A stretch of DNA of 64,000 nt from a virus (IMGVR_UViG_3300037483_000425:12686-76685), one strand, 5' to 3'; shown: positions 1,983 to 58,480, numbered from the stretch's first letter. The notes: a model not told the origin generated them from the letters alone. Numbers and translations are program-made.

Positions 1983-2606
1983 GTGGGATTAAGGGTAAAA
2001 TATCTTCAATTTATTGAAAATTGTGTTGAAAAAGCGAATTTAGATGGAGACAACCTAACAATAGTTGAACTTGGAAATCAACATATGCGTAATTCTGATA
2101 ATATGTTATCTTTTTACAAAGAAAAAGGCATAAAAAAACCAAAAAGAACTGGCAAGGAATACTTCCAAGCCTGCGGATATGACCACACATCAATTGACTT
2201 AAATGGAAGTGACAAAGCTTTGCGAGAAGACCTCTCCAAAGAGATTAAGAATAAAAAACTATTAAATAATTTCGATGTTCTTACAAATTGCGGAACATCA
2301 GAACATGTCAAAAATCAATATGAATGCTTTAAGAATTGCCATAATTTATGTAATGAAAATTCTGTCATGATTCATATTGTGCCACAACTCGGTAGCTGGA
2401 AGAAACATGGCGATTTCTTTTATAGAAATCAATTTTTTGAAATACTAGCAAAATATTGCCATTATGAAATTATTGACAATACAGTTATTGGCAAACCTCC
2501 AACTGCACTTGTAAGCGTTGGCCTTAAAAAAACAAAAAACGCAGAATTTGTAAGCAAAGAAAAATTTCAAGAACTTTTTACAAAAAACGAATCAAAGTCC
2601 AGCTAA
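1983..2606 (+). CDS. Class I SAM-dependent methyltransferase-like protein
   Basis: IVELGNQ, SIDLNG and DVLTNCGTSEHV motifs; TACTTA 6 nt before the GTG. Confidence 0.6.
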   Translation: MGLRVKYLQFIENCVEKANLDGDNLTIVELGNQHMRNSDNMLSFYKEKGIKKPKRTGKEYFQACGYDHTSIDLNGSDKALREDLSKEIKNKKLLNNFDVLTNCGTSEHVKNQYECFKNCHNLCNENSVMIHIVPQLGSWKKHGDFFYRNQFFEILAKYCHYEIIDNTVIGKPPTALVSVGLKKTKNAEFVSKEKFQELFTKNESKSS

Positions 2607-2798
2607 TTTTGCCCAACGACTGCGACTGAGTTCTTTTTCTTTTTCATCGAACGTCATGTTGGCCAGCAGATCAAACGAATCTCGGTTTGTGGTTTGATAT
2701 TTCGACATTCCACCATTTACTTTCTTTGCAGCCAGTTTTTTTATGCTATCTTCTAGCATTTTAGTCCTCATTTCTATGCAAATGTTATCTAAATTCAT
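2592..2798 (-). CDS. Small protein ending in a copy of the scaffold C-terminal motif (SRWAKLAGL)
   Basis: Start reassigned to ATG 2798 (TATAAT 6 nt upstream); MNLDNI N-terminus; C-terminus matches scaffold 61102-63156 (SRWGELAGF). Confidence 0.7.
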   Translation of the reverse strand: MNLDNICIEMRTKMLEDSIKKLAAKKVNGGMSKYQTTNRDSFDLLANMTFDEKEKELSRSRWAKLAGL

Positions 2799-2805
2799 AT
2801 AAGCA

Positions 2806-3741
2806 TTATATCGCATTTTCTTCAAATGGTATCGGGATAAATATGCTACGAGGATTTTGAAGCGTTTCAAAGCCAGCGGCATTCTTATGACCGCCTCCGC
2901 CAAATAGTTTAGCAATAGCTGAAACATCAGTTTCCCCTTCAGATCGAAGAGAAACAATAGACTTTCCTGAATCTATAAACATAGACCACGCAATAGCAAT
3001 ATCAAACCCATGGATATTTGTTCTTAACAAATGGTGGCATAAATCTGACACGATAACAGGAGAAGAGTCATTAACTGACATAGCATTGTATTCGGATCCA
3101 TCTGGGGCCAGAATACGAACAGGAACAGCCTTCTTCGCCGCAATCTCAACCAACTTTTTCTTAAATCTAAGAATTGCTCTCCCTTCTCCCATAAAAGCTT
3201 GAAGCTGACTCTCAGAACCATCCAAGTCATTAATCCAGTCCAAATTTTCAAAAGACAGTTCCCAACTATCCATAGATGCGAGAAATTCTTTAGAATTATG
3301 GACATTCCATTTCCAAATATCCCGATCTTCGATGCACCTAATCATAAAAGGGGCTTCGTATCCTGGGTTCATGAAATCCCAAGCCATCCGCGCTCCAGAA
3401 CGACCCATATCAAAGACGTAATCACAATCAATTTTACCATCCAGATTTTCAACCGCAGTTTTATGATGATCTAAAATGAGCATCTTATTTGCTCTTCTGT
3501 TCAATTCATTGATAAAATTTGGGTCCTTGTAGGCGAAATCAACCATCAGAACATTTTTTCCATCTACTTCTGGTAACTTTTCTGAGCCATAGCTGGCAAA
3601 AAAGAACTTACAGTTGGGATTGTCCCTCCACACACACCAAGCTGCTCCCCATCCATCTGGACAATTAGAATGAGCGATCACATAATTTATTTCGTGAGGT
3701 TGCATGTCGCGCACCATATCATAGTCATTAATCAATGTCAA
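2806..3741 (-). CDS. DHH/DHHA1-family phosphoesterase
   Basis: HSNCPDG, LDHHKT, EDRDIW and GGGHKNAAGF motifs; exact start uncertain. Confidence 0.85.
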   Translation of the reverse strand: MTLINDYDMVRDMQPHEINYVIAHSNCPDGWGAAWCVWRDNPNCKFFFASYGSEKLPEVDGKNVLMVDFAYKDPNFINELNRRANKMLILDHHKTAVENLDGKIDCDYVFDMGRSGARMAWDFMNPGYEAPFMIRCIEDRDIWKWNVHNSKEFLASMDSWELSFENLDWINDLDGSESQLQAFMGEGRAILRFKKKLVEIAAKKAVPVRILAPDGSEYNAMSVNDSSPVIVSDLCHHLLRTNIHGFDIAIAWSMFIDSGKSIVSLRSEGETDVSAIAKLFGGGGHKNAAGFETLQNPRSIFIPIPFEENAI

Positions 3742-3757
3742 CCGAATATTTATAATC

Positions 3758-3934
3758 GTGGAAGACCAACTAAGACAATTTGTTAGGTCAATAATTCAAG
3801 AAAAAGGACCAATTGTTTCTAGAGAATATAAAGCCTACAAGGGGTCTAAGAAGGCTGGCGCAGACGATCCTGAAGCGATGGCTGCGGCTGCCACAATTGC
3901 AATTAAAGGGAAGCCTGCCAGCAAAGACGAATAA
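3758..3934 (+). CDS. 58-aa protein with capsid-targeting-like N-terminus
   Basis: Not in ORF track. GTG 3758 to TAA 3934 (MEDQLRQFVRSIIQEKG...); TATTTA 5 nt upstream; stop overlaps the next ATG. Confidence 0.7.
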   Translation: MEDQLRQFVRSIIQEKGPIVSREYKAYKGSKKAGADDPEAMAAAATIAIKGKPASKDE

Positions 3935-4359
3935 TGTTATTACGTGAATACATACGCTCCGTTTTGCTTGAAAGGCGAGAATATGACATTTCCACAGAAG
4001 GAACGAGCTATTCTGAGAATCAAATAAAGAAATTTATCAAATTCGCAGCCAATGAACTCAAATTAAAAGAAGTTCCAAAAATTGAGATTGTTCAACGCAT
4101 CCCGAAAGGCACAACAGGAGCATATCACTTTGGCGGAGAATCAAAAAAGATCCAGGTTCGTGGCAATGGACGAAAACTCGTTGATATTTTGAGAAGCTTG
4201 GCGCACGAACTTGTTCACCACAAACAAAAAGAACAAAAAAGACTTCGCAAGATAAGTAAATCCGGCATTGGCGGAAAGATTGAAGACGAAGCAAATGCCA
4301 AAGCTGGACAACTTATCAAAAAATATGGAAAAACGTATAAGCGACTATATAGCGCCTAA
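3934..4359 (+). CDS. HExxH zinc metalloprotease-like protein
   Basis: LAHELVHHKQ plus downstream EDEANAKAG; MLLREYIRSVLLE N-terminus. Confidence 0.7.
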   Translation: MLLREYIRSVLLERREYDISTEGTSYSENQIKKFIKFAANELKLKEVPKIEIVQRIPKGTTGAYHFGGESKKIQVRGNGRKLVDILRSLAHELVHHKQKEQKRLRKISKSGIGGKIEDEANAKAGQLIKKYGKTYKRLYSA

Positions 4360-4453
4360 TATTATCCATATTTTTGTAGAATCCAATGATTCCAAATAGT
4401 GTCTTTATAAGAAACTTTGTGACTTATAGACCCCGTTCCCTGGATAAATTCAT

Positions 4454-4588
4454 CTATTCCAAAGATTTCAAGTCAGAAACTCTTTCTTGTAAATCTTTTA
4501 TTCTCTTTACTAACTCTAAAACTGGATCATGGAATACGATACCATTAGATTTCTCTCTTGGTCGATCATTGAAAGGCTTAATGGTCAT
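4454..4588 (-). CDS. 44-aa hypothetical protein coupled to the MTase
   Basis: ATG 4588 overlaps the MTase end; C-terminal coiled-coil-like stretch. Confidence 0.4.
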   Translation of the reverse strand: MTIKPFNDRPREKSNGIVFHDPVLELVKRIKDLQERVSDLKSLE

Positions 4589-5072: not shown

Positions 5073-5075
5073 TCT

Positions 5076-5873: not shown

Positions 5874-5890
5874 GAACCTCCATTAACGGG

Positions 5891-6280
5891 TTAACAAATT
5901 TTTGTTGTTTTTGAACTAAACACATCATTGAACAAGTGCGTGCTCCATCCTCGTTCGGCCGGTGTTCCCCTATCTGGTGTAACTTTAGTAAAAAACCCCT
6001 GAACTTTATCTTGAATTCCAAATGTCAAATCAGGATCTGTATTTCCATTAATTGGATCGTAATACTCAAGCGCGCCATCAATGTAAGAAATAATCACATT
6101 AGCATCTTCTTCCATTTTTACCTTCTTTTTGATGATTTTGTCTAATTCGTCAAAATCTTCTCCTTTGATCTCTTTAATGTGATCTCGGATAATAAGCGCC
6201 TGTTCTTTTGTCAAAGGCTTGTCATTATTTCTAATTTCAAAAAAGCCCTGTAACCAATATAAAAATTCTATATTATTCAT
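5891..6280 (-). CDS. Phage hypothetical protein (FxYWLQGxFE family), paralog of 52892-53296
   Basis: EFLYWLQGFFEI versus DFLHWLHGFYQM; both also have LTxxQ..I.DHI. Confidence 0.7.
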   Translation of the reverse strand: MNNIEFLYWLQGFFEIRNNDKPLTKEQALIIRDHIKEIKGEDFDELDKIIKKKVKMEEDANVIISYIDGALEYYDPINGNTDPDLTFGIQDKVQGFFTKVTPDRGTPAERGWSTHLFNDVFSSKTTKIC

Positions 6281-8436
6281 TTTATTGCTCCATGAGGCAA
6301 TCCTTCATGATAGCCTGCCATTGTTTGAGTCTTGTACCGAGCATTTCTCCAAAGTTCGTCAAATGTTCTTGCATTGGAATAGCTCATTCCTGATCGAACT
6401 CCCGCCACCAACTCCCCCACAATCTCTTCAACTGTGCCGCCCTCAGACATTCTTGTATGAGTACCCTCGGAAGCGACCTGTCCACGAGCAGGATCCGCCG
6501 CAGAACCCTTATAAAACTTTTGTCCATTCGTTGCAGGCGCGGCCGACTCTTTGGCCGGCGCAAGCAAACCGCCAATCATCACCATATTCGCTCCTGCAAC
6601 AATAGATTTAACAATATCTCCAGAGTAACGAATGCCACCATCTGCAACAAGCAATTTCTCTTCAGCATCTGTCCAATATGCACAATCTTGAATGGCAGAA
6701 AATTGTGGAACTCCATGACCTGTTACAGTCCTTGTTGTGCAGACAGAATTATGTACAATGCAATTGTTGGCAATAAAACTGTGAGTTGGACAATCTACTT
6801 CAATGTCCCAAGTTTCAATTTCGATTTCTTGTTCTTCTCGATCTCTAAATGTTCCATACCAACAATTTTCAGTAAACCTGTTTGATGTATGAATTTTTAC
6901 ATTGTGCGCTTCGTTTAGATTATCAAAATTGCATTCAAAACCAGCCGACTTAGACGGAGTGTGAGCATTATAGCTTTTTCCGAGAATAGAACAACAAAAA
7001 TAAAACAATTCTATTAATTTTTCACTAGTATTTGTGAAGCAATCCCTGCCATTTTTTTCAGTGTGGCCATCAGAATCAATAAGTCCATCATAAATTCCTA
7101 AAACATATTCTTTATTACAAGCAAGATATTTTTCATTAAGGCTCTTTTTTTCTCTTTTGCCGAAATCTTCCAAAAGCATAGCAAAATATTTATTGTAGAT
7201 AATAACAGTTTTTAGATTAGCACTTTCGTCAATCGACGGATTAAGTCCATATCCCCGAAGAATGCCAATCAATTTATCAACAATTCTGTCTTCATTTTTC
7301 CCAAAATACCAACAAACAACCCCACTTCCATTTGGTAAAACTCGTGCATTGCCATCCCCTAAAAAAGTCCCAAATACATACCCTAGATTATATGAACATT
7401 TGATCCATCTTTTGAATTCTTTGTTTCCATTTGTTTTAATTGTGCCTGTAGTAATTTTCGACCTTATTGAAAACTGAGCCAAATCAATCCCAAAATCAAA
7501 TTGTAAATGATAATCAATATTTTTTGGCATCAAAGTCAAAGTTTGATTATTTGTATTTTCAATTTGCTCCCATTTATACTTAGAAGATTTTGGTATTGTC
7601 TTTGACTGTTGCTCTAATAATTTAGATATTCCTTTTGACTGGAATGTCTCCCAAGAAACACTTCGACAATCACCAATCCAATATTTGTGATCAGGCGTAA
7701 CAAAAGTATCTTTATGCCAACTTGATGTTTTCTGTTTAACTACTTTCCTAATTCCGCTATTAATTTTATTAAGTACTCTTACTGGTTTTCCATTCTTATT
7801 AATTACAAATTCTCCAGGATTTATTTTTTCTATATTTTTATATGTACCATTCGCCATAAGAACTTTGGTTCCAGAGGCAAAACAACCAGGACCAACCCCA
7901 CACTTAATTGCATCTGCTCCCCACATAATCAAATCATTTGTAGCAGTTCCTGTTGCCACATTTCCTGCCATAATATAAACATCATCGCCCCACTTGTCTC
8001 GCATCCACTTGATTGTCTCTTCCATCTGAATGCTATGACCATGAGCAATGTCAACAATAAACATCCGCGCCCCCGCATTGTAAAGCGCTTCTGCTCTTTC
8101 TGGCTCATTAATGCCAATTGAAACAAAACAATCCCTCGACTCTTCCTCCCCAGGAATAGTGTATGAATATTTTACTCTTCTATATTCAATAACATTTGCT
8201 TCAATATCCCAAAATCTATGAATGGCCCCAATTCCTCCTGCATCCCACATAGCATTCGCCATTCCTGAATCCGTTACCGTCTTCATGTTGGCCGAAATAA
8301 TAGGGTTTGGCCTTTCATATTTCCATATCTTGACGCTCGTGTTCGCTTCAGAACGAGATCTTAATGTGGTCATTTGCGGGATAAGAATAATATCATCAAA
8401 TGTGTATGATAATGTTGTCATTATATTTTCCACCAT
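6277..8436 (-). CDS. IMP dehydrogenase / GMP reductase family enzyme (no CBS domains) with intein
   Basis: TFDDIILIP, SANMKTV, VDIAHGHS, MAGNVAT, GVGPG|SVCTTR catalytic loop, ADGGIRYSGDIVK; guaB versus guaC not resolved. Confidence 0.9.
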   Translation of the reverse strand: MVENIMTTLSYTFDDIILIPQMTTLRSRSEANTSVKIWKYERPNPIISANMKTVTDSGMANAMWDAGGIGAIHRFWDIEANVIEYRRVKYSYTIPGEEESRDCFVSIGINEPERAEALYNAGARMFIVDIAHGHSIQMEETIKWMRDKWGDDVYIMAGNVATGTATNDLIMWGADAIKCGVGPGCFASGTKVLMANGTYKNIEKINPGEFVINKNGKPVRVLNKINSGIRKVVKQKTSSWHKDTFVTPDHKYWIGDCRSVSWETFQSKGISKLLEQQSKTIPKSSKYKWEQIENTNNQTLTLMPKNIDYHLQFDFGIDLAQFSIRSKITTGTIKTNGNKEFKRWIKCSYNLGYVFGTFLGDGNARVLPNGSGVVCWYFGKNEDRIVDKLIGILRGYGLNPSIDESANLKTVIIYNKYFAMLLEDFGKREKKSLNEKYLACNKEYVLGIYDGLIDSDGHTEKNGRDCFTNTSEKLIELFYFCCSILGKSYNAHTPSKSAGFECNFDNLNEAHNVKIHTSNRFTENCWYGTFRDREEQEIEIETWDIEVDCPTHSFIANNCIVHNSVCTTRTVTGHGVPQFSAIQDCAYWTDAEEKLLVADGGIRYSGDIVKSIVAGANMVMIGGLLAPAKESAAPATNGQKFYKGSAADPARGQVASEGTHTRMSEGGTVEEIVGELVAGVRSGMSYSNARTFDELWRNARYKTQTMAGYHEGLPHGAIK
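6748..7884 (-). mobile_element. Intein with LAGLIDADG homing endonuclease (379 aa)
   Basis: Starts CFASGT, ends IVHN followed by Ser; LGYVFGTFLGDG and GIYDGLIDSDG blocks. Confidence 0.92.
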
Positions 8437-9335
8437 TGAATGGTTTTTTCAAGACCATCCCAAAAACGAACCTTTGGCTCATATCCATACTTGGATAATG
8501 CTGATATATCAGCTTGCGTATGCTTCACATCGCCTGGTCTTTCTGGGGCGTGCTCTATATTAAGATCTCCAAACCTCTTTTTAAGAAATTCTAATATTTC
8601 GTTATTTGAGGTTCGATCACCACAAGCAACATTGAAACAATCACCTTTGAAGATCGTATCAGCTGTTGCAACAATAATGTTAGCATCCACAACATTATCT
8701 ACATAGCAAAGATCTCGACTTTGTTCTCCATCCCCATCGGAACGAAGAGGCGTTCCGTGCTTAATCGCATGACACCAAGCAGCAACCGCTGTGCTATAAG
8801 GAGAATCACCATATTGATAGGGTCCAAATACATTGAAATAACGTAAGCAAACAATATCCAATCCGTACAGCCTATGAAACATTTTGGCAAAATCTTCAAT
8901 CGTTTTCTTTTGCAATGCATAAGGAGAAACGGGATTCAAAGGTTCCGTTTCTTTTGTTGGCATATTCTTTGCTCCACCATAAACAGAAGAACTTGAAGCA
9001 AAGACAAACCGATTCACGTTACCACGTGCCGCCTCCATTAGCTTGATCGTTTTTGCAATATTTGTTTCGGTTGTTTCATAAGGTTGCTCAACAGATAATG
9101 AAACCCTTGGCATGGCCGCTTGGTGAAAAATAACATCGAATTCACTATTGGAGACCTTATCCAAAATGATTGGATCAGCAAAATCCATGGTGAAATTTTC
9201 TTTTCCCATGAAAAACTCATTGTGACCAGAGGATAGATCATCCACAACGGTAACATCTAACCCCATATTCATTAATCTTTCGGTTAAGTTGCTGCCAATA
9301 AAACCGGCTCCGCCTGTGACTAATATTTTCTTCAT
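8421..9335 (-). CDS. NAD-dependent sugar-nucleotide epimerase/dehydratase
   Basis: VTGGAGFIGS, SSSSVYG, YALQK (YxxxK), LRYFNVFGP. Confidence 0.92.
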   Translation of the reverse strand: MKKILVTGGAGFIGSNLTERLMNMGLDVTVVDDLSSGHNEFFMGKENFTMDFADPIILDKVSNSEFDVIFHQAAMPRVSLSVEQPYETTETNIAKTIKLMEAARGNVNRFVFASSSSVYGGAKNMPTKETEPLNPVSPYALQKKTIEDFAKMFHRLYGLDIVCLRYFNVFGPYQYGDSPYSTAVAAWCHAIKHGTPLRSDGDGEQSRDLCYVDNVVDANIIVATADTIFKGDCFNVACGDRTSNNEILEFLKKRFGDLNIEHAPERPGDVKHTQADISALSKYGYEPKVRFWDGLEKTIQWWKI

Positions 9336-9520
9336 TCTTTCCTCAACTTCTTTAATGTTTCATCAATAAAATCCATAGAAAGGTCCATCCAATAAGCTGC
9401 TGTTTCCTGAATCAAACTATAATGCTGACCAGGGTTCAAAAGCTTTGCCAACTCTAAGCATTTTTCCGCTTTTGCTAGTTCAGGATCATTTTTATTCACA
9501 ATATTGTCTAATTTATTCAT
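9332..9520 (-). CDS. Small hypothetical protein with MNKLDNI tag
   Basis: 62 aa, translationally coupled on both sides. Confidence 0.65.
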   Translation of the reverse strand: MNKLDNIVNKNDPELAKAEKCLELAKLLNPGQHYSLIQETAAYWMDLSMDFIDETLKKLRKE

Positions 9521-9969
9521 AAAATCTCCGATAAAAATGTTTGTATTCTTTCTCTTAATTCAGGATGTGCAGGATTCCCCCATCGATCATACCCAATAAC
9601 ATTACAGATAACAATTTTGTCCTTATTGTTGTTAATTGATTCTTGCAATTTCTCAACAAATTCAGATGGAATATTATCTCTTTTGGTAAAAAGATCTGTA
9701 TTAAGAAATAATTCTTCCAGATTTGGACGATTACAAACTATTGTTAAATCTGAATCTTCAATTTGGCGAGAGATAACACTAGGATGCCACCGCATAAAAC
9801 CTGTTGCATATACATTTTTATATCCCAGTGCACTCAAATGCATTGCCATGCTAACACTTCTAACCTGACCATAATTGCAAAGTGTTAAAAGTTTTATTTC
9901 TTCTTTTTGCTTATTTGGCAGATCTGACACCAATAGTTTGTCTCTATATTCCATATCTAATTTACTCAT
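9517..9969 (-). CDS. Low-molecular-weight protein tyrosine phosphatase-like protein
   Basis: LCNYGQVRS = CX5RS P-loop near the N-terminus. Confidence 0.65.
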   Translation of the reverse strand: MSKLDMEYRDKLLVSDLPNKQKEEIKLLTLCNYGQVRSVSMAMHLSALGYKNVYATGFMRWHPSVISRQIEDSDLTIVCNRPNLEELFLNTDLFTKRDNIPSEFVEKLQESINNNKDKIVICNVIGYDRWGNPAHPELRERIQTFLSEIL

Positions 9970-10147
9970 TTATAGCCTCCCAATTGCCACCCACATTAAA
10001 AGAAAATGTTATGTAATCTATCTTTTTGTGGACATAAACCGTCCCAGAAAACCTATTATTTAGTACATCATCTAATTTGGGTCCATTCATTTTAATGGAA
10101 AAAGATAAAGAATCTCTGATTTCTTGAGAGATATTATTAAGTTTCAT
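9962..10147 (-). CDS. Small protein resembling the tail-sheath C-terminal strand
   Basis: NRFSGTVYVHKKIDYITFSFNV aligns with sheath end NRLNGRIVIVPTRTIEFVAIDFVI; MKLNNI tag. Confidence 0.6.
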   Translation of the reverse strand: MKLNNISQEIRDSLSFSIKMNGPKLDDVLNNRFSGTVYVHKKIDYITFSFNVGGNWEAINE

Positions 10148-10722
10148 TTTGTTTCTCCATAAGCAAAATGATGTCGATCAACATGATTTTGCTTAATATT
10201 TGCGCTTACATATTCAAGGTTTGGCATGACTCGATAAATAAGTTCCCACAACCCTTTGTCTGGATATTCTTCTTTAAGTTTGCTTATGTCGTCCGAGCCG
10301 GGTGGTCCCGTTACCATCATTTCAATAATTAATGAAGCTTTATCACAAACTTTGACCATTTGTTTTGTAATTCCGTCTGGCGGTTCCACCCCTAAAAATG
10401 ACCAAATTTTGCTGTCCAAAGCATCTTCAAGACTATGAATGGCATTTCTAACTTCTGGTGTATGATTTTTAATTGGGGAAGGAATGTCTCCAGTATAAGC
10501 TTCATGAAAATCATGCCCCAATGCGTAAACCATCTTATCCAAAGGAAATCCCGCAACCATCCAAATGATTGCTACAAGAACGCTATGATGTAAAACAGAA
10601 AACTCATTGTCTCCGTTATTGCCAAAGCGTTTGTAACGTCCAAGAAGAACTACAATGTCCAATGGGCAAACAAGCCCATGTTCCCCCGATAATGGGGACA
10701 ATTGTCCGGTCCATGTTCTCAT
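10144..10722 (-). CDS. HD-domain 5'-deoxynucleotidase-like (YfbR-type) hydrolase
   Basis: SVLHHS, LGHDFHEAYTGDIPSPIK and VKVCDK motifs. Confidence 0.8.
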   Translation of the reverse strand: MRTWTGQLSPLSGEHGLVCPLDIVVLLGRYKRFGNNGDNEFSVLHHSVLVAIIWMVAGFPLDKMVYALGHDFHEAYTGDIPSPIKNHTPEVRNAIHSLEDALDSKIWSFLGVEPPDGITKQMVKVCDKASLIIEMMVTGPPGSDDISKLKEEYPDKGLWELIYRVMPNLEYVSANIKQNHVDRHHFAYGETK

Positions 10723-11411
10723 ACTATCACCTTAATATTCGCCTTCTCAAAATGCGCAGTCGCATTCTCACTCAATGGAAACCTATAACAAATCGGGAAT
10801 AGAGCGCTTATTCCAATATCTTCATTAGTGGTTTTGGAGATAACCTTTTCTTCATTGCCAACTCTCATTACCGACTTTATCTCTATTGAAAAATCTTCCA
10901 TATCATCGTAATATCGAATTGCAGCACATACTGGACCTTCGAAAACTTCGCATATTGTTAGCTGTTTTGATCCCAAAAGCATAACAACATTTGACCTTCG
11001 ATGAAGATTGCCAAGAGTTACAACTCCCATATATCTTCTAATGCGATCTCCCCTTTCGTTATATTCCGACCATCCAGCATATTTGATGTGCTTATGAGAA
11101 TTGGGAGAAAATTTCCATCTTCCCGACCTTCCTATCTCATATTGCTCAGTTGTTATAGAATAGAAAGGGAAATAAAACCTACAAAGACCATCATCTATGC
11201 GCCACAACTCTTTTGCATATGAATATAAAGCTTGAAAAGTCATGTCAGATTTGACATCAATAATCTTTCTGTCTGTATCAAAAGTAACATCATAATTTGT
11301 AATCAAATTTGGATCTTTAATGATTTTCAAATCTTGAACAGAGATAAGCTCTCCATACTTTTTCCAATAAGCATCAAAACAAACACTTGAACAAATATTA
11401 TTCAGTTTCAT
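10719..11411 (-). CDS. Hypothetical protein with MKLNNI tag
   Basis: 230 aa; coupled to neighbours. Confidence 0.7.
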   Translation of the reverse strand: MKLNNICSSVCFDAYWKKYGELISVQDLKIIKDPNLITNYDVTFDTDRKIIDVKSDMTFQALYSYAKELWRIDDGLCRFYFPFYSITTEQYEIGRSGRWKFSPNSHKHIKYAGWSEYNERGDRIRRYMGVVTLGNLHRRSNVVMLLGSKQLTICEVFEGPVCAAIRYYDDMEDFSIEIKSVMRVGNEEKVISKTTNEDIGISALFPICYRFPLSENATAHFEKANIKVIV

Positions 11412-11601
11412 TCTTCTTTTCCTCTTTTAATTTGTCAATTTCTGCTTGAAGAGCAGAACATCTCATGTCAACATAATACTCAATCGCCTCGCAAAGCTCT
11501 CCGATCGCGCTATTCACTGCAATTCTCTTTGTCCAAGACAAAAGATCCAAAAGCTTAAGCGTCTTTGGGGCTTTCTGTTTTAAAACTTGATCTAATTTCA
11601 T
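11398..11601 (-). CDS. Small hypothetical protein with MKLDQV tag
   Basis: Start reassigned to ATG 11601 (GAGG SD upstream). Confidence 0.65.
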   Translation of the reverse strand: MKLDQVLKQKAPKTLKLLDLLSWTKRIAVNSAIGELCEAIEYYVDMRCSALQAEIDKLKEEKKNETE

Positions 11602-11609
11602 ATTTCCTC

Positions 11610-12629: not shown

Positions 12630-12636
12630 AAGAATA

Positions 12637-48285: not shown

Positions 48286-48320
48286 TTGCTTCTCCTATAA
48301 ATACACTCTTAATTGAAAAA

Positions 48321-51300
48321 TTACACATCAAAACTTACACCTGCATTTGTAATCACAAAATCAATCGCAACAAACTCAATAGTTCTGGTTGGAACAATAA
48401 CAATTCGGCCATTCAAACGATTCTGCTCGGCATCCTTGTCAGAGTTATTACGCTCATCCATGATTACATCAAATCTCTCGATTCCTTGCTGAGCCTGAAT
48501 CAAACTAAGCTGAGGAACAACTTGATTAATGAAACGCAATCTTGTAGTTATTGTGTTTTGTTCGAATACAATATTCTTTCCGATATTCGTAACAATTCTC
48601 TTGACCTCTAAAAGAAGTCGTCTAATATTAACTCGATCCAATGCGCTTTTTGCTTGCTGAAGGTTCTTTTGTCCAAAGATTACAAATCCTTCATTCGGAA
48701 AATTTGCAATTGGATTAATGCGAGCATCGTATAAAGTATCACGATCCCCAGTTGTCAATCTAACAGCAATGTTTGTCACAAAGTCTAATGCGCCTCGATT
48801 AAATCCTGCTGGCGCGAACCATGGAAATCCAACTCGATCATTGAATCCTAATGCAGACAAAGCCGCAATAGATGCCGGCAATTGCACCTTTCGATTGTTG
48901 ACAACATCATCAATAACAACATCTGGGAAATATGTTGCAGCGTAACTGTTATCCACTGCTCGTGATTCAAAGTTCTCCGCAGTTTTACGCACATCAGGCT
49001 TTGAATCGCTATCGTCAAATAAACGCACGCCTTGATCGTCATAACTTGGGATATCCATGACATAAAGAGCCATAGAGAATTCCCTCGTCTTTGTTGCAAC
49101 AAAGTCTGTTACAAAGCTGTCTCTGATTCCAGGGATTGCCAAAATATTAATGGATGGAATCTGAGCGCCGTTCGCAGATAATGTGAATGGATCCAAGAAT
49201 ATTTTTGCAGCAGTTTGATAACTAAAGATTGCATTATTTTCTTTTCCTGCACCAGCCGGATTGACAGCCAATCCTGTTGCTAAATATGCAGAAGACGCCC
49301 CACCATCAGTATCGCTTGAAGATGCCCTATCATTTAGACGAGAAGCATTCTTATCAAGAATATTCACTCCATCAAATCCGCCATACATAATATTTGTGAA
49401 CTTATTGAATGTCTGGAATCTATTAAAGTCTGCTGAAGACGTTAAATTCACTAATGTAGCCATGGTGATACGATCCGTAATCACCCCGTCAGAAACCTTA
49501 TAACTGGTAGCATCAGGCTCTGCATTTCTAAGGTATGCGGCCTCTCTAATATGATCTTCAGCTGTACCTGAAAGATTTGCCACATTGCTATTACTAAACG
49601 CAACACGAGCTAATGTGAACTTATTCTCATTGAATGAATCAACATTTGAACCTGTAACCAAGGTATCCAACTTAGACAATCCAACAAACTTGGAATAAGA
49701 TTTTCCAAGACCGCTCTTTTCTTTCGTTGTGTTAGAATTCAATGGTACTTTATTTCTTTCGAGCTTAGCTCCCCAATAAAGGCGACCATCAACCTCTTCA
49801 GAAACGCCAGGGTTTCCTGCAAATCCAGCTTCCGAAACGCTTCCACGTGTGACCTTGAATCTGTATGGAAGTGGAGGAACTATGGACCCACTAAGTTGCC
49901 CAACAGATCCTGAACCTCCTAGTCTAATATTGACACTGGTTGGATCTCCATCAGTATTCAAATCGTTTGTCTTAAGAGCTTCAATGCCTCGGAATCCGAA
50001 CGGCAAAGCCCTTGCTGGAATAAGCCTTCTTTCTACAGCTTCTTCCATAACGATTCTTACAACATTGGACTTATTCTCATAACGACCTTCATCAACAATG
50101 CGACGCTCATCTTCGCTATCTGCGTCGAAAATATAACGAACTTTTCTGTCACCAATCTTTCTTGCAACATAATTCTCGCTTCTAGGATCTAAGTTGCAAT
50201 CAGGGAATCTAGCCACAATTTGCGGATCTTGGTCTGTGTCCTCCCATTTTCTAATTTGAACTTCAAATGTACCAAATGGATTTGTTGGATCCGTGCTTGC
50301 ACGAAGATTTGCAATAGAAACCTTAATGCGATTATTCGCATAATTTCCATCGTCTAATGCTTCGAAATAAAAGAGATCGTACTCTGTTTTACCAAATGGC
50401 TGAGAAATAAACTTGGTTGTTTTCGCGGCTTGAAATCTGGTATCAAAGTGACCATAAGCATCGCGGAAAAGCATTGCTGTATCGCCAGAAGAATCCGACG
50501 TATTCGAAGTCCCAGACAAAATCGCAATAGATCCGGCATCGGTTGAGACGGCCGCCACTTCAGCATCGACAGAATAATCTAGATATAAAAGATGATTCAA
50601 TTCAGCAAATCTATCAGGATTTGTATTAAGAATCTTTGCAATATAATCAGAGCTTCCAGGATCTAAAGATGCTGTGAAAATCGTTGCTTTAAGCGTTGAA
50701 GAAACAATAAGCTTAAACTTATTTGAACTATTCAAAGAAGCAACATCGTCAATAACTGGTGTTGCCAACTGTGATCCAGTTAACTCTTCATCTCCATCAG
50801 CAACCAGGATTCGAGACCCGCTTGTATTGAAAATAACGGCACGAACCACATAAGCATCATCTGTTGCTGATGTTGCAGTAAAGCTGTCATTATCTGTAAA
50901 AATAGGCATGCCAGACACTTCTTCTGTCTGGACTTCGTGTTTGGCTACCAAGAATTGAACAGGACCAAGATGTCTGTCATCTGTTCCAACCGTTCCGGTA
51001 ACAATAAATCCTGCGTTTTTAACTTGACCAGTTAGCCTGGTTTTCTCAATATCATCTGTTGTATCATTAGCACCAGCACCAAGCACACGCATAAATGAGA
51101 CAGACGTGCGATTGGCCAAAAATTTATCAATAGCGTATGTTGCCGGATGCTTAGGATCTAATCCGCCAAATCTTGTTTCAAAATCTGGGGACGATCCCAA
51201 TGTCACCGGCACAAAAGCAGGACCGCGCGGCGAGGTTCCAATAACGCCGGCAGGAACACCCGCTGGACCCTCTTGACGAGCACTGAGGTCTCTCTCTATT

Positions 51301-51338
51301 TCAAAAAATCCTGGTGATCTGAATGTTTGCTCAGCCAT
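48321..51338 (-). CDS. Tail sheath protein 1
   Basis: Same motifs; start at MAEQTF with AGGAG SD. Confidence 0.92.
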   Translation of the reverse strand: MAEQTFRSPGFFEIERDLSARQEGPAGVPAGVIGTSPRGPAFVPVTLGSSPDFETRFGGLDPKHPATYAIDKFLANRTSVSFMRVLGAGANDTTDDIEKTRLTGQVKNAGFIVTGTVGTDDRHLGPVQFLVAKHEVQTEEVSGMPIFTDNDSFTATSATDDAYVVRAVIFNTSGSRILVADGDEELTGSQLATPVIDDVASLNSSNKFKLIVSSTLKATIFTASLDPGSSDYIAKILNTNPDRFAELNHLLYLDYSVDAEVAAVSTDAGSIAILSGTSNTSDSSGDTAMLFRDAYGHFDTRFQAAKTTKFISQPFGKTEYDLFYFEALDDGNYANNRIKVSIANLRASTDPTNPFGTFEVQIRKWEDTDQDPQIVARFPDCNLDPRSENYVARKIGDRKVRYIFDADSEDERRIVDEGRYENKSNVVRIVMEEAVERRLIPARALPFGFRGIEALKTNDLNTDGDPTSVNIRLGGSGSVGQLSGSIVPPLPYRFKVTRGSVSEAGFAGNPGVSEEVDGRLYWGAKLERNKVPLNSNTTKEKSGLGKSYSKFVGLSKLDTLVTGSNVDSFNENKFTLARVAFSNSNVANLSGTAEDHIREAAYLRNAEPDATSYKVSDGVITDRITMATLVNLTSSADFNRFQTFNKFTNIMYGGFDGVNILDKNASRLNDRASSSDTDGGASSAYLATGLAVNPAGAGKENNAIFSYQTAAKIFLDPFTLSANGAQIPSINILAIPGIRDSFVTDFVATKTREFSMALYVMDIPSYDDQGVRLFDDSDSKPDVRKTAENFESRAVDNSYAATYFPDVVIDDVVNNRKVQLPASIAALSALGFNDRVGFPWFAPAGFNRGALDFVTNIAVRLTTGDRDTLYDARINPIANFPNEGFVIFGQKNLQQAKSALDRVNIRRLLLEVKRIVTNIGKNIVFEQNTITTRLRFINQVVPQLSLIQAQQGIERFDVIMDERNNSDKDAEQNRLNGRIVIVPTRTIEFVAIDFVITNAGVSFDV

Positions 51339-51431
51339 TATTTGCTCCTTACCCAACTAGCGAGGGTTTACAATACTAATAATAAGTAGTAGTCACTTCT
51401 TCAAAACACATATGTCAAACTTCGCACAAAT

Positions 51432-52631: not shown

Positions 52632-52670
52632 CTATATAACTATGCAAATAAAGTATTGTATACTAATAAT

Positions 52671-52895
52671 ATGTTTAACAATATATTATCAAAAGAAGAA
52701 GTAGAAAAAAGATTTCCTAAAGGCTCATCTGTAGAAATTTTAGGAACAGATCGCCTTGGGATTGTTGTCTCGGAAGCAAAAGTTTATCACCCCCTAAAAC
52801 AATGCGGCTATCCAAAATGCGATTGTAAAACAATCAGCGAATTAGACAAAGAAAAACAATCAATTATGGTTCCATATGATATAATGAATTTATGA
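52671..52895 (+). CDS. Small hypothetical protein
   Basis: Start reassigned to ATG 52671 (TATACT 6 nt upstream); coupled to the next gene. Confidence 0.6.
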   Translation: MFNNILSKEEVEKRFPKGSSVEILGTDRLGIVVSEAKVYHPLKQCGYPKCDCKTISELDKEKQSIMVPYDIMNL

Positions 52896-53296
52896 CAAAT
52901 AATGATTTTTTACATTGGTTACATGGATTTTATCAAATGATTGGCGACACGACCTATTGCTTGACTGATCGACAAGTTGACACAATTCTTGATCATATTG
53001 ATCTTGTTCGAAACAACCCTCACAATGCCTTGTCACGACAAATACAATTGACCGAATATATCGCAGGACTATTTGGAATGTGGGACACATTCAATGATAA
53101 ACAAAAATGGAACGCAGGAGATCGGGCCAGAATCGCTCTCTATTTCTATTTTAATCCAGATCGAGCAATGTATGGGTGGCGTTTCCCAATGTATGGGTGG
53201 CGTTTCCCTTCTTCTCTAAGAAAAACATCATTCGAAACTCAAAGATCAGAGTCTTTAGATGCTATTGTAAATCCTAAAATGTTCGTAAGCTGCTAA
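52892..53296 (+). CDS. Paralog of 5891-6280 with an internal 7-aa duplication
   Basis: FLHWLHGFYQM; MYGWRFP occurs twice. Confidence 0.65.
   Translation: MTNNDFLHWLHGFYQMIGDTTYCLTDRQVDTILDHIDLVRNNPHNALSRQIQLTEYIAGLFGMWDTFNDKQKWNAGDRARIALYFYFNPDRAMYGWRFPMYGWRFPSSLRKTSFETQRSESLDAIVNPKMFVSC
53166..53207 (+). repeat. Perfect 21-bp tandem duplication
   Basis: CAATGTATGGGTGGCGTTTCC twice, in frame. Confidence 0.95.
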
Positions 53297-53976: not shown

Positions 53977-53990
53977 ATTAACAAATAGTA

Positions 53991-54608
53991 TTAATAATCA
54001 GGTTCTTCCCAAGAAAAACCGATCCCCTCAATATCGCTTGCCTTCTTCTTTTCAGCTTCAGGATCAAATACTGAATAATTTTCCATTTCTTCTGGCGACT
54101 CAACAGCATCAGAATCAATATCCATGCTTGGCTCAATTGGCTTTCTTGGCTTGATTCTATGGGCTTTCGCTATTTCATCAGGAATTGTAGTCCCACGAAT
54201 TCCTCTTACCAATCTTTCACGAGAAACCAAATGCTGAGGAACATCATAAAGATCTGCTAATTTTATATCTGAAACTTTTCCCAACATCTGAAGAATCTCT
54301 GGTGAATTTCTAATTTTTGCCCACTGGACCATCTCAATCGGAATTCCAAATTCTTCAGCAATAGCTCCATCTTTTTCTATTCCCAAACGGGCAATTGCTT
54401 CAGGTGGCAAATCTGGTTGCCTAGAAGCATACTTTAATGCCAACCTCTGACCACGAGGATGCATCCATCCCCATTTTTCTTGCTGTTCGGGGCTCAGCTT
54501 TGGCGGCGGCTCTACATCCTCCATTCCAAGCGTTCCCTTTGGCTCCCTTGGCGGCTCATCCAATTCTTTAATCAAGAAATTTATGTATTCACGCAATAAA
54601 TTCTTCAT
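53991..54608 (-). CDS. HTH-repeat protein with capsid-targeting-like N-terminus
   Basis: MKNLLREYINFLIKE; two LG..D..IA...G/D..V repeats; TAGTTA 5 nt upstream. Confidence 0.65.
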   Translation of the reverse strand: MKNLLREYINFLIKELDEPPREPKGTLGMEDVEPPPKLSPEQQEKWGWMHPRGQRLALKYASRQPDLPPEAIARLGIEKDGAIAEEFGIPIEMVQWAKIRNSPEILQMLGKVSDIKLADLYDVPQHLVSRERLVRGIRGTTIPDEIAKAHRIKPRKPIEPSMDIDSDAVESPEEMENYSVFDPEAEKKKASDIEGIGFSWEEPDY

Positions 54609-54616
54609 AATGATAA

Positions 54617-55333
54617 CTATTTGTCACCTTTGGTAATGTTTTCATTCTCCCATAAAGGTTGAGTATTCAAATAATGAAAACATTTCTTTTGTTGTTCCGG
54701 ATCAGATAAATCGAATTTAGAACAAGGGCAAATATGATCTATGCACCATCCTCCCCTTCCATAATTCTCCCAACTCATTCCATATTGAAATTTAGACTCT
54801 AAATATATCTTATATTCCTCAATAGAACACCCAAGAAGACTAAGCGTTTTTTTAGATTTGCATTTTCCATTCAAAGCATCATATATCCTTTTTCTACAAT
54901 TTTGAAGAATACGATATCCTACATCTTCTTTCCTTCTTTTTGCCCTAACCACTCTTGCACGTTCTCTTAGTTTATCCTTATTTTTTTCCCTATATTTTCT
55001 CTGATACTCAGCCAATTTTTCAGCATTTTCTTGAGCGTATTTCTTTTTTTTAAAGGCAATTAATTCTTTGTTTTTTTCTCGATATATTTTTCCGCGTTCT
55101 TTTATCTTTTCTTTGTTTGCCTCAGCATATTTTTTAACGCATTTGAGGATATTTTTTTTATTTTTTTCATAATATTTTTTTTGATATTTTCTAATTTTAT
55201 TCCTGTTCTTCAAGTATCTATTTGATTTTTTGTCTTCAAAACAAACTTTGCACTCAGAACGATATTTTTGACTGTCTTTTCTAAAATAGAATTCAGAAAG
55301 TTCTTTTTCGGAGTTACATGTTTTACATATCAT
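54617..55333 (-). CDS. HNH-type homing endonuclease-like protein
   Basis: N-terminal CxxC..CxxC, KEK-rich linker, WENYG..WCIDHICPC..HY.NTQPLW; start moved to ATG 55333. Confidence 0.8.
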   Translation of the reverse strand: MICKTCNSEKELSEFYFRKDSQKYRSECKVCFEDKKSNRYLKNRNKIRKYQKKYYEKNKKNILKCVKKYAEANKEKIKERGKIYREKNKELIAFKKKKYAQENAEKLAEYQRKYREKNKDKLRERARVVRAKRRKEDVGYRILQNCRKRIYDALNGKCKSKKTLSLLGCSIEEYKIYLESKFQYGMSWENYGRGGWCIDHICPCSKFDLSDPEQQKKCFHYLNTQPLWENENITKGDK

Positions 55334-55368
55334 GAAAAAGTATATCAACTTTTTCTGGTACGATAAAA

Positions 55369-56550
55369 TTACCCTGCAACAATCATAAAACCATTAGGCA
55401 TCGGCACGCCACGTAATTGCCTCATAAGATTTTCAGACTTTGTAGCTTGCTGTTCAACCAAACTATCATATGTGAGATTCTCAAGCTGATCTCTCAACTG
55501 AGTCCTTAGTCTTTCTTTTTCTTCATATCCGCGAGTCAACAAATCGTCATAGTTCAATTGGACATCTGTGTTCGGAACAGGAATATTCCTTACTTTACCA
55601 CGAATATACCCAAGACGAATCATACACAATGCTAAAGTATATTCTCTAATCCATTGTTTCCCAACAGAATTGATTGTATTATAAGACAAATTATCATATG
55701 GAATATTAGATAGATTGGAGATTCCAAATATGGAATCATCAGCAGATCCGCTTAAGAATGCCTTATTATTAAAAGGATCGCCAGGAAATGAAACTCTAAC
55801 AAATAGCTTTCGAGGATTTCCTGAATCACGAATCGGAACTGGCATAATTCTTAGCTGTTGTCCAATAACTCGATAACTATAATTCGATCTCCTTACGCGC
55901 TGAGAAAGCTGCAATTGTCCTTGACGAAGCAAGTCTTCAAAGACAGGAAGAACATAAAAGATTGTCTCTGGCGTGAAACTTTCAAAATTGAATTCGTTAT
56001 TCAAAAAGTTGATAGCAGATGTGCTATCAAAGAAACGGAAAGCCACAGCCGGGCTAAAATGGAAAACTTCCGTTATTCGCATCCTTCCTTGAGATCCGGT
56101 CGGCTGCAAATCAAACAAAGGCGTTCCATTACCATCAACCAATTCTGTTACTAAATCATAATCTTGACGCCCCTTTTCCAAAGTGATCGATCCAGACAAT
56201 TGGTTCTGATAACCAGAATATGAAGCCTCTTGAGAATAAGGCTCGGCTTGGCGAATCAAAAACTCAAGAGTTTCTCTGGGATATAGATTTTGAACATTAG
56301 AGCCTGTACTTTGCCCTAATAAGGTTGCCATGTTTGAACGAGCCTGGAATTCATTAATGATGGCTCCCCAAACCAAAGTTGCCTCTTCAAAGGCATCCCA
56401 GATTGTTTTACTTGTCAACTCAACAGAAAGGACATCATCCCCCAACGCTCTCTTCACATAGTTTATAATACTATCTGCATCCGCCTGGAAGGTGGTGTCG
56501 CTGTCAAATATCCCAAATGCTGTTGGGTTCGTAACGTCAAGAAATCCCAT
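55369..56550 (-). CDS. Neck / head-tail adaptor protein (T4 gp13-like)
   Basis: LG..VLSVELT, WIREYTLAL...LG.IRGK, L.YDDLL..G. Confidence 0.8.
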   Translation of the reverse strand: MGFLDVTNPTAFGIFDSDTTFQADADSIINYVKRALGDDVLSVELTSKTIWDAFEEATLVWGAIINEFQARSNMATLLGQSTGSNVQNLYPRETLEFLIRQAEPYSQEASYSGYQNQLSGSITLEKGRQDYDLVTELVDGNGTPLFDLQPTGSQGRMRITEVFHFSPAVAFRFFDSTSAINFLNNEFNFESFTPETIFYVLPVFEDLLRQGQLQLSQRVRRSNYSYRVIGQQLRIMPVPIRDSGNPRKLFVRVSFPGDPFNNKAFLSGSADDSIFGISNLSNIPYDNLSYNTINSVGKQWIREYTLALCMIRLGYIRGKVRNIPVPNTDVQLNYDDLLTRGYEEKERLRTQLRDQLENLTYDSLVEQQATKSENLMRQLRGVPMPNGFMIVAG

Positions 56551-56606
56551 ATCTCTTGATAAATATGGGATTTAATCGGTTTTATTTTGTTTTCCAGAAA
56601 TCACTT

Positions 56607-57272
56607 TCAAATGACGGAATTTTTAAATCCCTCATGGATCTCCATGGATATTTTTATGCTTTGATTAATTACATTGATCGAATCTCCGCCTTTCTTTAGC
56701 CTAATAACGAATTTAATAAATTTTCCACTAAGAGGATTGCTTATCCAATTTCCGTCTTTGAAATCGCCTCGCTCATTATGTCTTCGAAGATTGAGTGCCG
56801 CACCATTACCGGCCCGAGCCTGGTTCCAATCTCCTTGATATTTAGGACCCCAAGGAACCGCATCATTTCGCAGCATACCCAAATCAGATATAATAATTTT
56901 ATAGATTCGATGTAAATCGCCTTTTGGAATCGCTTTTTCTATTTCATAAGTTGGAATTATAAGATATTGAAAATCTAATTCACTATCAAGATCATTAAAA
57001 ACATCTGGATCGAAACTTACTAATCGAGCATTTGTTTTGGTAAATTCTTTAGATCTACTAACCGTCCCATAATTGAAAAACAAATCATTTCCTTGAATGT
57101 TTGCCCATGCTCCTTGCCATAAATCTTTTGTTTTTACAGTCCCTGAATCATAAACCGGACCATATCCTCCGCCACCGATCAAATCATATTGTCTGCCCGT
57201 ACTATATGTCCGCTTGATTCCACCGACGAACAAATCGCTGCGCAACTTATTGAATATATTGTCTAATTCCAT
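56607..57272 (-). CDS. Stand-alone paralog of the MCP insertion domain
   Basis: Colinear blocks match MCP aa ~144-330 (TGRQYDLIG, LNLRRHNERGD, KFVIRLKKGG). Confidence 0.88.
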   Translation of the reverse strand: MELDNIFNKLRSDLFVGGIKRTYSTGRQYDLIGGGGYGPVYDSGTVKTKDLWQGAWANIQGNDLFFNYGTVSRSKEFTKTNARLVSFDPDVFNDLDSELDFQYLIIPTYEIEKAIPKGDLHRIYKIIISDLGMLRNDAVPWGPKYQGDWNQARAGNGAALNLRRHNERGDFKDGNWISNPLSGKFIKFVIRLKKGGDSINVINQSIKISMEIHEGFKNSVI

Positions 57273-57277
57273 ATTTT

Positions 57278-57286
57278 ATTATATCA
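57278..57286 (-). promoter_or_regulatory. Extended -10 promoter TGA-TATAAT, leaderless; representative of about 12 sites
   Basis: 5 nt before ATG 57272. Confidence 0.7.
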
Positions 57287-57291
57287 CATCA

Positions 57292-57609
57292 TCAATAAAA
57301 ATTTCTGTCAATTGGAGCGCAAAGAGAAACAAATCTTCCCATCCGCGAGTCCTTTGAAACATCTGAAACAACAAATACAGCATGTCTAAGACCAATGGCT
57401 TTTGCAATATATTCTCTATTTTTTGGAACCCTTGCAATCATAGTTTCTGCGTTTACCTTTCCTGATGCCACCAAAACAGCATCAGGTGTGCCATCCTTTT
57501 CTTTGTCATATATACACCATTCGGCATCTTGGTCTTTTCTCAAAACATCATTAAAATGAAGAGAAACGTCTTCATATAATTCATCGTCAATAATTTGATC
57601 TAATTTCAT
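57292..57609 (-). CDS. Small protein with MKLDQI tag and possible sheath-like motif
   Basis: PKNREYIAKAIG resembles sheath PSSDRFIGKAIG; TGA-TATAAT 6 nt upstream. Confidence 0.65.
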   Translation of the reverse strand: MKLDQIIDDELYEDVSLHFNDVLRKDQDAEWCIYDKEKDGTPDAVLVASGKVNAETMIARVPKNREYIAKAIGLRHAVFVVSDVSKDSRMGRFVSLCAPIDRNFY

Positions 57610-57616
57610 ATTTTCA

Positions 57617-58150
57617 TTATATCATATGGTCCCAGAATATCTCATCATCCTGATTGACAAACCTTATTTTATCAAAAGTCAATGACCCAAATGGGATTTC
57701 AATGTCGTCTGGGAGCTTTTCATTTTCACTATAATACAACGATATATGAGCTTTGAATTTGGGATAATCCGAAGGTGGCGCTCCGCACTTCTGGATCCCT
57801 TTATCAATCTTCTTATATGCTTTACCCAATTCCTTAGAATCAAGCATGACAACCAAAGCGTCTCCCAGTCTCTCTAATCCAACCGCTTTGCACTTAAATT
57901 TTCCTAACTCTAAAGAATTAAGAAATGGGATAATTTCATCCAAATGCCTTTCCCCTTTCCACCAACGAATTGTGCAATGCATCTCGTCCGGTGACAAAAC
58001 CTTTGCACCTTTAGGAATCTTCAATGATTTTCTGAATTTTAATATTTTATCAATCGATCTTTTATCAGGATAGGCTGCGATCATTGATGTCGGCTGATCA
58101 GAATCTATCTTCTCAAAAAGAATCCGCATATATTCTCTCAATAACAACAC
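57617..58150 (-). CDS. 2H phosphoesterase (LigT/Acb1-like fold)
   Basis: Two Hx(T/S) motifs (MHCTI, AHISL); MLLLREYMRILFE N-terminus; TATTTA 5 nt upstream. Confidence 0.8.
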   Translation of the reverse strand: MLLLREYMRILFEKIDSDQPTSMIAAYPDKRSIDKILKFRKSLKIPKGAKVLSPDEMHCTIRWWKGERHLDEIIPFLNSLELGKFKCKAVGLERLGDALVVMLDSKELGKAYKKIDKGIQKCGAPPSDYPKFKAHISLYYSENEKLPDDIEIPFGSLTFDKIRFVNQDDEIFWDHMI

Positions 58151-58174
58151 ATAGATAAATAGGCTTATTAATAC

Positions 58175-58480
58175 CTATCTTCCAAAAAGAAGCCTGAATG
58201 CTATAAAGTCAAGCTTCTTTGAACAATCAAATGGTAGCGATAATGCGATTTCATTAGAACAAATAACTACCATTTCTTCCTCCGGAGTAAGTCCACAATA
58301 AGCCTTTAAGTCTTGTAATCTGTCCCATGAAAAGAACTTAAGCTTTGATTCAACCTGTCCTGTCGAGTGCCAATAGTAATAATACATAGAACCATTTTCG
58401 TCTATGTAAATTGGAATATTCAATCCAAATTTGGAAAGCAATCTATTTCTAATTCTTCTACCTAATTTTTGTTTAGTCAT
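58175..58480 (-). CDS. Small protein containing an MCP P-domain segment
   Basis: QDLKAYCGLTPEEEMVVICSNEIALSL versus MCP QDLNAFHSLDAEVELTKILSEQVALDI (11/27 identical); start ATG 58480 with GAGG SD. Confidence 0.7.
   Translation of the reverse strand: MTKQKLGRRIRNRLLSKFGLNIPIYIDENGSMYYYYWHSTGQVESKLKFFSWDRLQDLKAYCGLTPEEEMVVICSNEIALSLPFDCSKKLDFIAFRLLFGR

Follow-up and report, generated by a model that had tools for sequence, protein, structure and literature searches.

A stretch of 64,000 nucleotides (positions 12686-76685 of the 76.7-kb virus record C1; hereafter the window), which covers about a quarter of the genome of a huge T4-like phage, carries small genes whose products are recognisable pieces of the phage's own major capsid protein (MCP). 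One of these genes (56607-57272) encodes a free-standing copy of the insertion (I) domain of the MCP, a second (58175-58498) carries a segment of the MCP spine helix and a third is located 12.1 kb before the window. Such stand-alone pieces, which comprise the Gol segment, insertion domain, spine helix and A-domain of the MCP as well as parts of the portal and the terminase ATPase, recur in related huge phages. An earlier, sequence-only reading had grouped five small open reading frames (ORFs) of the window into one dispersed family of capsid, scaffold and sheath mimics, most of them with a common N-terminal tag (M-[KEN]-L-[DN]-[NQ]-[IV]). All five ORFs are present, and the fragment genes, as far as their sequences tell, represent a recurring design of exapted head-assembly interfaces rather than one tagged family. 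The parent gene and the two pieces within the window, with lengths in amino acids (aa), are as follows.

59194-61071, minus strand: MCP of the T4 gp23 type, 625 aa, the parent gene (PF07068 E 2e-74; aligns to T4 gp23)
56607-57272, minus strand: stand-alone copy of the MCP insertion domain, 221 aa, tagged, with a leaderless promoter
58175-58498, minus strand: protein of 107 aa (101 aa if begun at 58480) with MCP spine-helix segment 394-420 at its residues 62-88, detected by profile; no tag

The 56607-57272 product aligns to MCP residues 136-315 with 37% identity over 194 aa (BLAST E 3e-30; profile E 8e-35), and the match reaches approximately residue 336, which corresponds to the whole insertion domain. 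In the MCP this insertion of about 200 aa, as against 60 aa in T4, is located between the two PF07068 blocks and forms the only well-modelled unit of the protein (residues 167-340), the AlphaFold2 (AF2) model of the whole MCP being poor elsewhere. The AF2 model of the copy, made with an alignment of MCP insertions, has a predicted local distance difference test (pLDDT) value of 84 and a predicted template modelling score of 0.78, and the copy is predicted to fold alone. It is identical at 19 of the 23 columns that are at least 90% conserved, compared with 51 of 154 elsewhere. A second stand-alone insertion domain, P0005 (L081:6813-7535), is encoded by another phage in the same MCP-to-neck island; the two have derived residues in common and are likely to be of common origin, and both sit on long branches (2.6 and 3.6 changes per site vs 0.29). 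The start of P0005 resembles Y-L-S-P-G-V, which we take to be a motif of the tail-sheath N-terminus. The claim that 56607-57272 copies the MCP insertion domain is thus borne out by the alignment, the predicted autonomous fold and the relative in another phage. The copy spans MCP residues 136-336 only, lacks a complete HK97 core and falls below the PF07068 cut-off.

No further stand-alone insertion domain beyond P0005 was found in word-limited searches, two of which missed P0005 itself, and no close homologue of 56607-57272 was present among 5.8 billion proteins. Its model gave no match above Z 3.7 to PDB folds, the best viral match having an E-value of 0.002; this absence does not count as evidence of a new fold. 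At the nucleotide level blastn gave no match between the gene and the MCP gene and third codon positions are saturated, which rules out both a DNA-level function and a recent duplication.

The spine-helix piece, whose gene starts at 58498 or 58480, is weaker but real. BLAST does not detect MCP residues 394-420 significantly (E 0.1), whereas windowed profiles do so at E 0.002-0.003. With reversed ORFs as decoys (648 in the small-ORF scan) and with shuffled sequences as controls, no reversed decoy equals this match and its score was reached by none of 2000 shuffles. An orthologue in a relative (L158:12719-13102; 34% identity, E 5e-13) conserves just the spine-helix block and matches the same MCP segment (shuffle p 0.004). 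The segment, assigned to the P-domain in the sequence-only reading, is a spine-helix segment; the likeness is limited to residues 394-420 and is below the PF07068 cut-off. An independent assembly covers 55300-60775 with 0 differences, and misassembly of the fragment island is thereby ruled out.

Relatives were gathered via the MCP and sheath as contigs of 30-320 kb, including two records of approximately 320 kb, G001 and G002, of which G001 has an MCP that is 79% identical to that of this genome. The third fragment gene of this genome, which the earlier reading did not include (C1:126-572, plus strand; also L107:126-572), encodes 148 aa with MCP segment 79-121 at 53% identity (E 7e-11) and has a leaderless-type promoter and no tag. 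MCP profile positions 80-108 align with T4 gp23 residues 94-122, which we take to be the Gol peptide that activates Lit. This Gol segment is the most copied piece (6 of 17; C1:126-572, L001, L081, G001 and G002), and it is also found in cultured phages as XacN1 ORF261 and Aeromonas phage Ah1 gp328 (PHROG 12830). Fragment genes cause mis-annotation, as with the 129-aa Ah1 protein that is annotated as 'major head protein'.

G001 carries four MCP-piece genes, two of them tagged and located in a cluster syntenic with window positions 9332-11631, and G002 carries two to four. The A-domain-only genes (L250, L158 and G002) join MCP residues 436-550 to the C-terminal strand and drop the intervening part. 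Tagged orthologues that consist of the terminase ATPase alone (L081:1613-2353, L001:5681-6325, L004:12863-13606 and G001 287977-288609) have altered Walker motifs and lie just behind the MCP gene; they are absent from the island in this window. Portal pieces occur in G001, L004 and G002. Several fragment genes are located directly behind the MCP gene, and their presence among close relatives is patchy and non-orthologous. Terminase and portal pieces form one 473-aa frame in L002:12210-13631 and two frames in L004:12863-14283, a difference that may lie in the strain or in the assembly. G001 further encodes a 285-aa degenerate mini-capsid without an insertion domain (153564-154421; MCP 361-439 detectable, PF07068 E 0.014), and some 25 dispersed paralogues (L119-L135) that begin alike and contain H-R-x-D-G-P-A repeats, one of them being fused to a Gol segment (234944-235597).

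The choice of parent proteins is specific. A search of 1,739 small ORFs, and of the same ORFs reversed, with 50 core families at an equal depth of four sequences (876 windows), in which the best decoy reached E 0.003, gave fragment genes at E<0.001 for the MCP (14), the portal (2) and the terminase (2), and the remaining matches were ordinary paralogues or split genes. Among these small ORFs there were no pieces of sheath, baseplate, neck, tape measure, RecA, SSB or GroEL. A separate run with tube windows yielded no fragment and only one tube-like paralogue (G002 151826-152221; 131 aa, E 9e-23), which is remote from the tail module.

The fragments are under selection on their protein sequence, a conclusion that draws on codon positions, open frames, the retention of conserved columns and orthologues together. 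Second codon positions are much better kept than third positions in most fragment/MCP pairs, and in the three fragments of this genome third positions are near random (0.19-0.34) while second positions stand at 0.61-0.71, a contrast which is not decisive alone given that the MCP side saturates too. In simulations of neutral decay to 35-44% identity a frame of 201 codons stays open in at most 0.2% of runs, and orthologues are known for 56607-57272, the spine-helix gene and the terminase piece. The strains available for comparison were near-identical or did not cover the fragment genes. The copies have diverged by 45-65% from their own MCP, with a shift toward charged and aromatic residues; Lys and Arg make up 13% of the insertion-domain copy as compared with 5% of the parent domain.

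The tag pattern occurs at exactly 7 places in the six frames of the 76.7-kb contig, all of them ORF starts, and at six annotated starts against 0.11 expected (at most three in 5000 draws). The tag is therefore far above chance and present on the genes named earlier, although three further tagged genes (9332, 10719 and 11398) had gone unlisted. It is specific to the lineage, being found on 29 of 775 ORFs of close relatives as against 12 of 3,609 ORFs of distant relatives (P 9e-14). Tagged genes are richer in fragments (6-8 of 31 vs 12-23 of 617; P about 1e-4), four of these being members of a single family of terminase pieces, but the majority of tagged proteins lack a detectable fragment and the majority of fragment proteins lack the tag. 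The tag is neither needed nor sufficient, and the proposal of a single tag-plus-fragment family is not supported. The Leu and Ile codons of the tag vary synonymously, which indicates that it is a peptide and rules out a DNA cassette. That it copies the first helix of the terminase, with which it is in register in the terminase-piece family, was rejected and is kept as a lead, as this match lies in the top 4% of 8-mers only. Compared with the capsid-targeting sequence of T4, an N-terminal peptide of late packaged proteins that closes with a prohead-protease site, the tag has no fixed L/I-x-E ending and is found on TATAAT or operon-internal genes. It is best taken as a leader peptide, specific to this lineage, of accessory genes that change fast; it is a mark of variable accessory slots rather than of a fragment family, and fragment genes bear it often, though not always. 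The promoters of three of the tagged genes are located as follows.

57278-57283, minus strand: TATAAT, a -10 box of the leaderless type, 5 nucleotides before the ATG of 56607-57272
57616-57621, minus strand: TATAAT, 6 nucleotides before the ATG of 57292-57609
2805-2810, minus strand: TATAAT, 6 nucleotides before the ATG of 2592-2798

These leaderless promoters had been noted in the earlier reading, as had a TANTTA motif of the virion genes. The three TATAAT boxes are confirmed, and a late-like TA-N-TTA motif is located upstream of the MCP, sheath, tape-measure and neck genes. The promoter motif of 56607-57272 is not of the late type, and the motifs alone suggest early expression of the fragments.

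A conserved epimerase - HD hydrolase - epimerase operon (window 8421-12629; G001 6305-10274; L157 4548-7789) holds different small tagged genes in each genome, its slots being hypervariable cassette sites. A second leader (L-[RK]-[EQ]-[YFI]-[IL]) is found on unrelated genes (3934-4359, 18205-19773, 28463-28858, 29831-30079 and 53991-54608) and, unlike the tag, is widespread in distant relatives too; it is a candidate capsid-targeting sequence. The small, paralogous-looking genes at window 5891-6280 and 52892-53296, also present in G001 and L157, have a similar aromatic N-terminus.

The scaffold and sheath pieces of the earlier reading concern the following tagged genes and their supposed parents; the other tagged genes are given with them.

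61102-63156, minus strand: probable scaffold/core gene upstream of the MCP gene, with a conserved C-terminal motif (synteny and C-termini, 65 loci)
45283-51338, minus strand: two tandem tail-sheath paralogues of about 1000 aa each (PF17482 above cut-off in both; kept in relatives)
2592-2798, minus strand: 68-aa tagged protein that ends in the R-W-x-x-L-A-G-L head-protein motif (profile, C-termini)
9962-10147, minus strand: 61-aa tagged protein, sheath strand unsupported (profile, decoys, shuffles)
57292-57609, minus strand: 105-aa tagged protein with leaderless promoter, sheath motif unsupported (decoys, shuffles)
10719-11411, minus strand: 230-aa tagged protein, homologous over approximately 200 aa to the N-terminal part of a Thr/Gly-rich protein (555 aa) found in relatives
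9332-9520, minus strand: 62-aa tagged protein in which a profile scan found no virion fragment
11398-11601, minus strand: 67-aa tagged protein in which a profile scan found no virion fragment

The last eight residues of the 2592-2798 product are the scaffold C-terminal consensus of the clade, and the match spans 10-16 C-terminal residues. Its profile E-value of 0.11 is the best non-scaffold match (best decoy 5.1), and a second scan gave E 0.005 with 2 of 648 decoys scoring better. The motif itself is real, but it begins or ends about 15 non-scaffold proteins of the relatives, so that a scaffold-specific reading is too narrow and the end of 2592-2798 is better described as a head-protein motif than as a scaffold piece. 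The sheath pieces did not survive. For the C-terminal strand proposed in 9962-10147 the sheath window gave E 0.65 against 0.26 for the best decoy, with no PF17482 match; its best structural match is the tape measure (E 0.56, equalled by 112 of 648 decoys), and the shuffle p is 0.25 on the whole sheath and 0.013 only on a post-hoc 60-aa end that 8 of 647 small ORFs equal. The repeat motif that 57292-57609 had been suggested to carry was outscored by 19 decoys (shuffle p 0.13). A sheath origin of both was rejected, as BLAST, decoyed windowed profiles, PF17482, PDB sequences, ESM Atlas and phage tblastn all remained at chance; a very short sheath remnant could conceivably persist in either. The 10719-11411 homology, which is new relative to the earlier reading, is with L021, L018 and L023 (24-27% identity, E 2e-13 to 4e-10); the 555-aa parent matches no Pfam or PHROG family and is probably a virion or fibre protein.

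The fragment genes are best explained as accessory 'self-mimic' genes: interface pieces of head-assembly proteins, most often the MCP and also the portal and terminase ATPase, have been excised repeatedly in this lineage, joined to new leaders or partner domains, placed under non-late promoters and retained by selection on the protein. The products, unable to build a shell, would act as competitive binders, which is their most likely role as inferred from sequence. They would occupy host sensors of capsid, portal or terminase, or shield the MCP, before the true proteins appear late; the insertion-domain copy would act by docking on the MCP rather than on a sensor. Counter-defence, with the fragments as sensor decoys, is the likeliest of the shared purposes, plausible though somewhat short of probable. 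It is suggested by the fact that all three parent proteins, MCP, portal and terminase, are known to trigger sensors (PMC11087589; 10.64898/2026.01.04.697583) and that several of the copied surfaces are those which sensors read: the Gol peptide of the T4 MCP activates Lit and CapRel contacts the MCP spine helix and P-domain sheet (PMC9712102), while Avs7, 8 and 10 bind the MCP A-domain (10.64898/2026.01.04.697583). Decoys and assembly interference are indistinguishable here, with the insertion-domain copy leaning to the latter, and different pieces may well do different jobs. The adjacency of the following gene to fragment genes also bears on the question.

57617-58150, minus strand: Acb1-like 2H phosphoesterase between two MCP-fragment genes (PF23474 E 3e-10, above the curated cut-off)

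Orthologues of this gene adjoin portal/terminase fragment genes in L004 and G001. Several points weigh against counter-defence. The Acb1-like adjacency in three genomes is suggestive only, with a chance expectation estimated at about 8% in G001. Avs sensors leave variable extensions unbound (10.64898/2026.01.04.697583), which would make the insertion domain a poor sensor decoy, and overproduced Gol peptide itself triggers Lit (PMC9712102), so that fragments could be triggers rather than blockers. The high conservation and strong expression of the MCP may, moreover, favour capture of its pieces as well as detection. More doubtful is the wider proposal that these phages maintain a 'self-mimic arsenal', in which capsid, portal and terminase would be tiled into small early proteins, many of them leader-tagged, that are swapped as cassettes against host sensors. 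If true, the copied segments would map the surfaces that are read by bacterial immunity, including those of unknown sensors, for instance for the insertion domain. In the 57617-58150 product itself both H-x-T/S motifs are present and the N-terminus carries a leader of the L-R-E-Y type; a late-like motif lies upstream of the gene, and the protein could be packaged and injected.

A role as assembly modulators or dominant-negative blockers, which bind MCP, scaffold, portal or terminase and either time the phage's own heads or spoil those of co-infecting relatives, is possible for the set as a whole without being likely; for 56607-57272 and 2592-2798 it is to be preferred. Every copied segment is a subunit interface. 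In T4 the I domain lies on a neighbouring capsomer subunit, which would make a free copy a natural competitor (PMC9958956), and assembly can be redirected by a homologue of the capsid protein, as satellite Ccm illustrates (PMC8569155). A predicted complex of the 56607-57272 product with MCP residues 60-625 scores 0.32 (best of three controls 0.00), the runs agreeing on at least 74% of contacts with a partner pLDDT of at least 74. The score mark was attained by 58 of 80 solved complexes as against 2 of 110 mismatches, with only 7 solved complexes and both mismatches at or below 0.60; so low a pass is wrong more often than right, lends weak support and may mirror a likeness to the MCP's own I-domain contact. 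A blocker of relatives that are 60-80% identical should, however, poison the phage's own heads unless strictly timed, sheath and tube pieces are missing though these would block tails as well, and the divergence and charged/aromatic shift of the copies count against blockers.

It is improbable that the fragments are low-level minor virion components, in which the copied piece docks a partner domain on prohead or capsid as decoration or cargo tag. Folding of the insertion-domain copy on its own, the presence of the 2592-2798 motif on many head-region proteins and the location of genes behind the MCP would fit, but the leaderless TATAAT is not the late motif, and the Lys and Arg enrichment and the patchy, non-orthologous presence do not suit a virion protein. 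Quite improbable, too, is gene-nursery debris, whereby pieces of a recombination-prone, highly expressed gene drift in accessory slots and only their conserved parts stay detectable; this would account for the long branches, the lack of close 56607-57272 homologues and the hypervariable slots between conserved genes, yet frames remain open at saturation, invariant residues are kept, orthologues persist over long distances, the cuts are domain-clean and join distant MCP segments, and other conserved genes have left no fragments. Very unlikely is that Gol-type pieces bind EF-Tu or a chaperonin and tune translation or MCP folding without any role in defence: although Gol is the most copied piece and the T4 MCP is cited as an EF-Tu binder (10.64898/2026.01.04.697583), this would account for a single segment among the five or six that are copied and leaves all five genes considered here unexplained.

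Bacteria sense capsid, portal and terminase, which are hard for phages to change, and known general counters to such sensors are scarce. Fragments that are kept by selection and come from just these three proteins, rather than from tail or replication proteins, are candidates for that role. Since cultured carriers exist (XacN1 ORF261 and Ah1 gp328) the idea is testable, and if the fragments were assembly blockers they would constitute natural, sequence-guided capsid inhibitors. Phage genes of this self-mimic design are undescribed in the literature searched, which excludes most subscription papers, and neither is a stand-alone Gol gene described there.

The fragments derive from a gp23-type MCP, and the 56607-57272 product matches the domain inserted in the E-loop of T4 gp23. 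The vertex paralogue gp24 is made late and enters the shell stoichiometrically at nearly full length, whereas the fragments are 50-290 aa long and have no HK97 core (PF07068; PDB 6UZC, 7VS5, 5VF3). The Gol peptide of the Lit/EF-Tu system lies inside T4 gp23 and triggers defence (PMC9712102); here Gol-type segments are stand-alone genes. Family 4 'A-domain encapsulins' (PF08967; PMC8346489) consist of one free HK97-fold domain, the same cut as that of the A-domain-only genes of L250, L158 and G002, and are the only published single-domain HK97 derivatives in the literature searched. They are cellular proteins in enzyme operons of thermophiles; PF08967 matches neither the window genes nor the A-domain copies, and none of the five genes considered here is an A-domain. 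A further capsid homologue is Ccm of SaPIbov5, which retains a complete HK97 fold and is incorporated into the shell. It is encoded separately from the capsid gene, by a satellite, and alters head assembly of the helper phage (PMC8569155, PMC5052747), whereas here the lytic phage itself encodes short pieces. DSAD1, the anti-DSR2 protein of SPbeta-like phages, is a small protein that competes with the tail tube for a host sensor and embodies the principle proposed here (PMC11087589); its function has been shown, whereas the fragments are known from sequence, can be recognised as copied from virion genes of the same phage, are of several kinds and concern head proteins. By analogy, the fragments would work like DSAD1 or Ccm while being members of neither. 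The present case contributes an insertion-domain copy of the T4 type, pieces of several kinds within one lineage, a controlled test of specificity and a partial link to a leader peptide.

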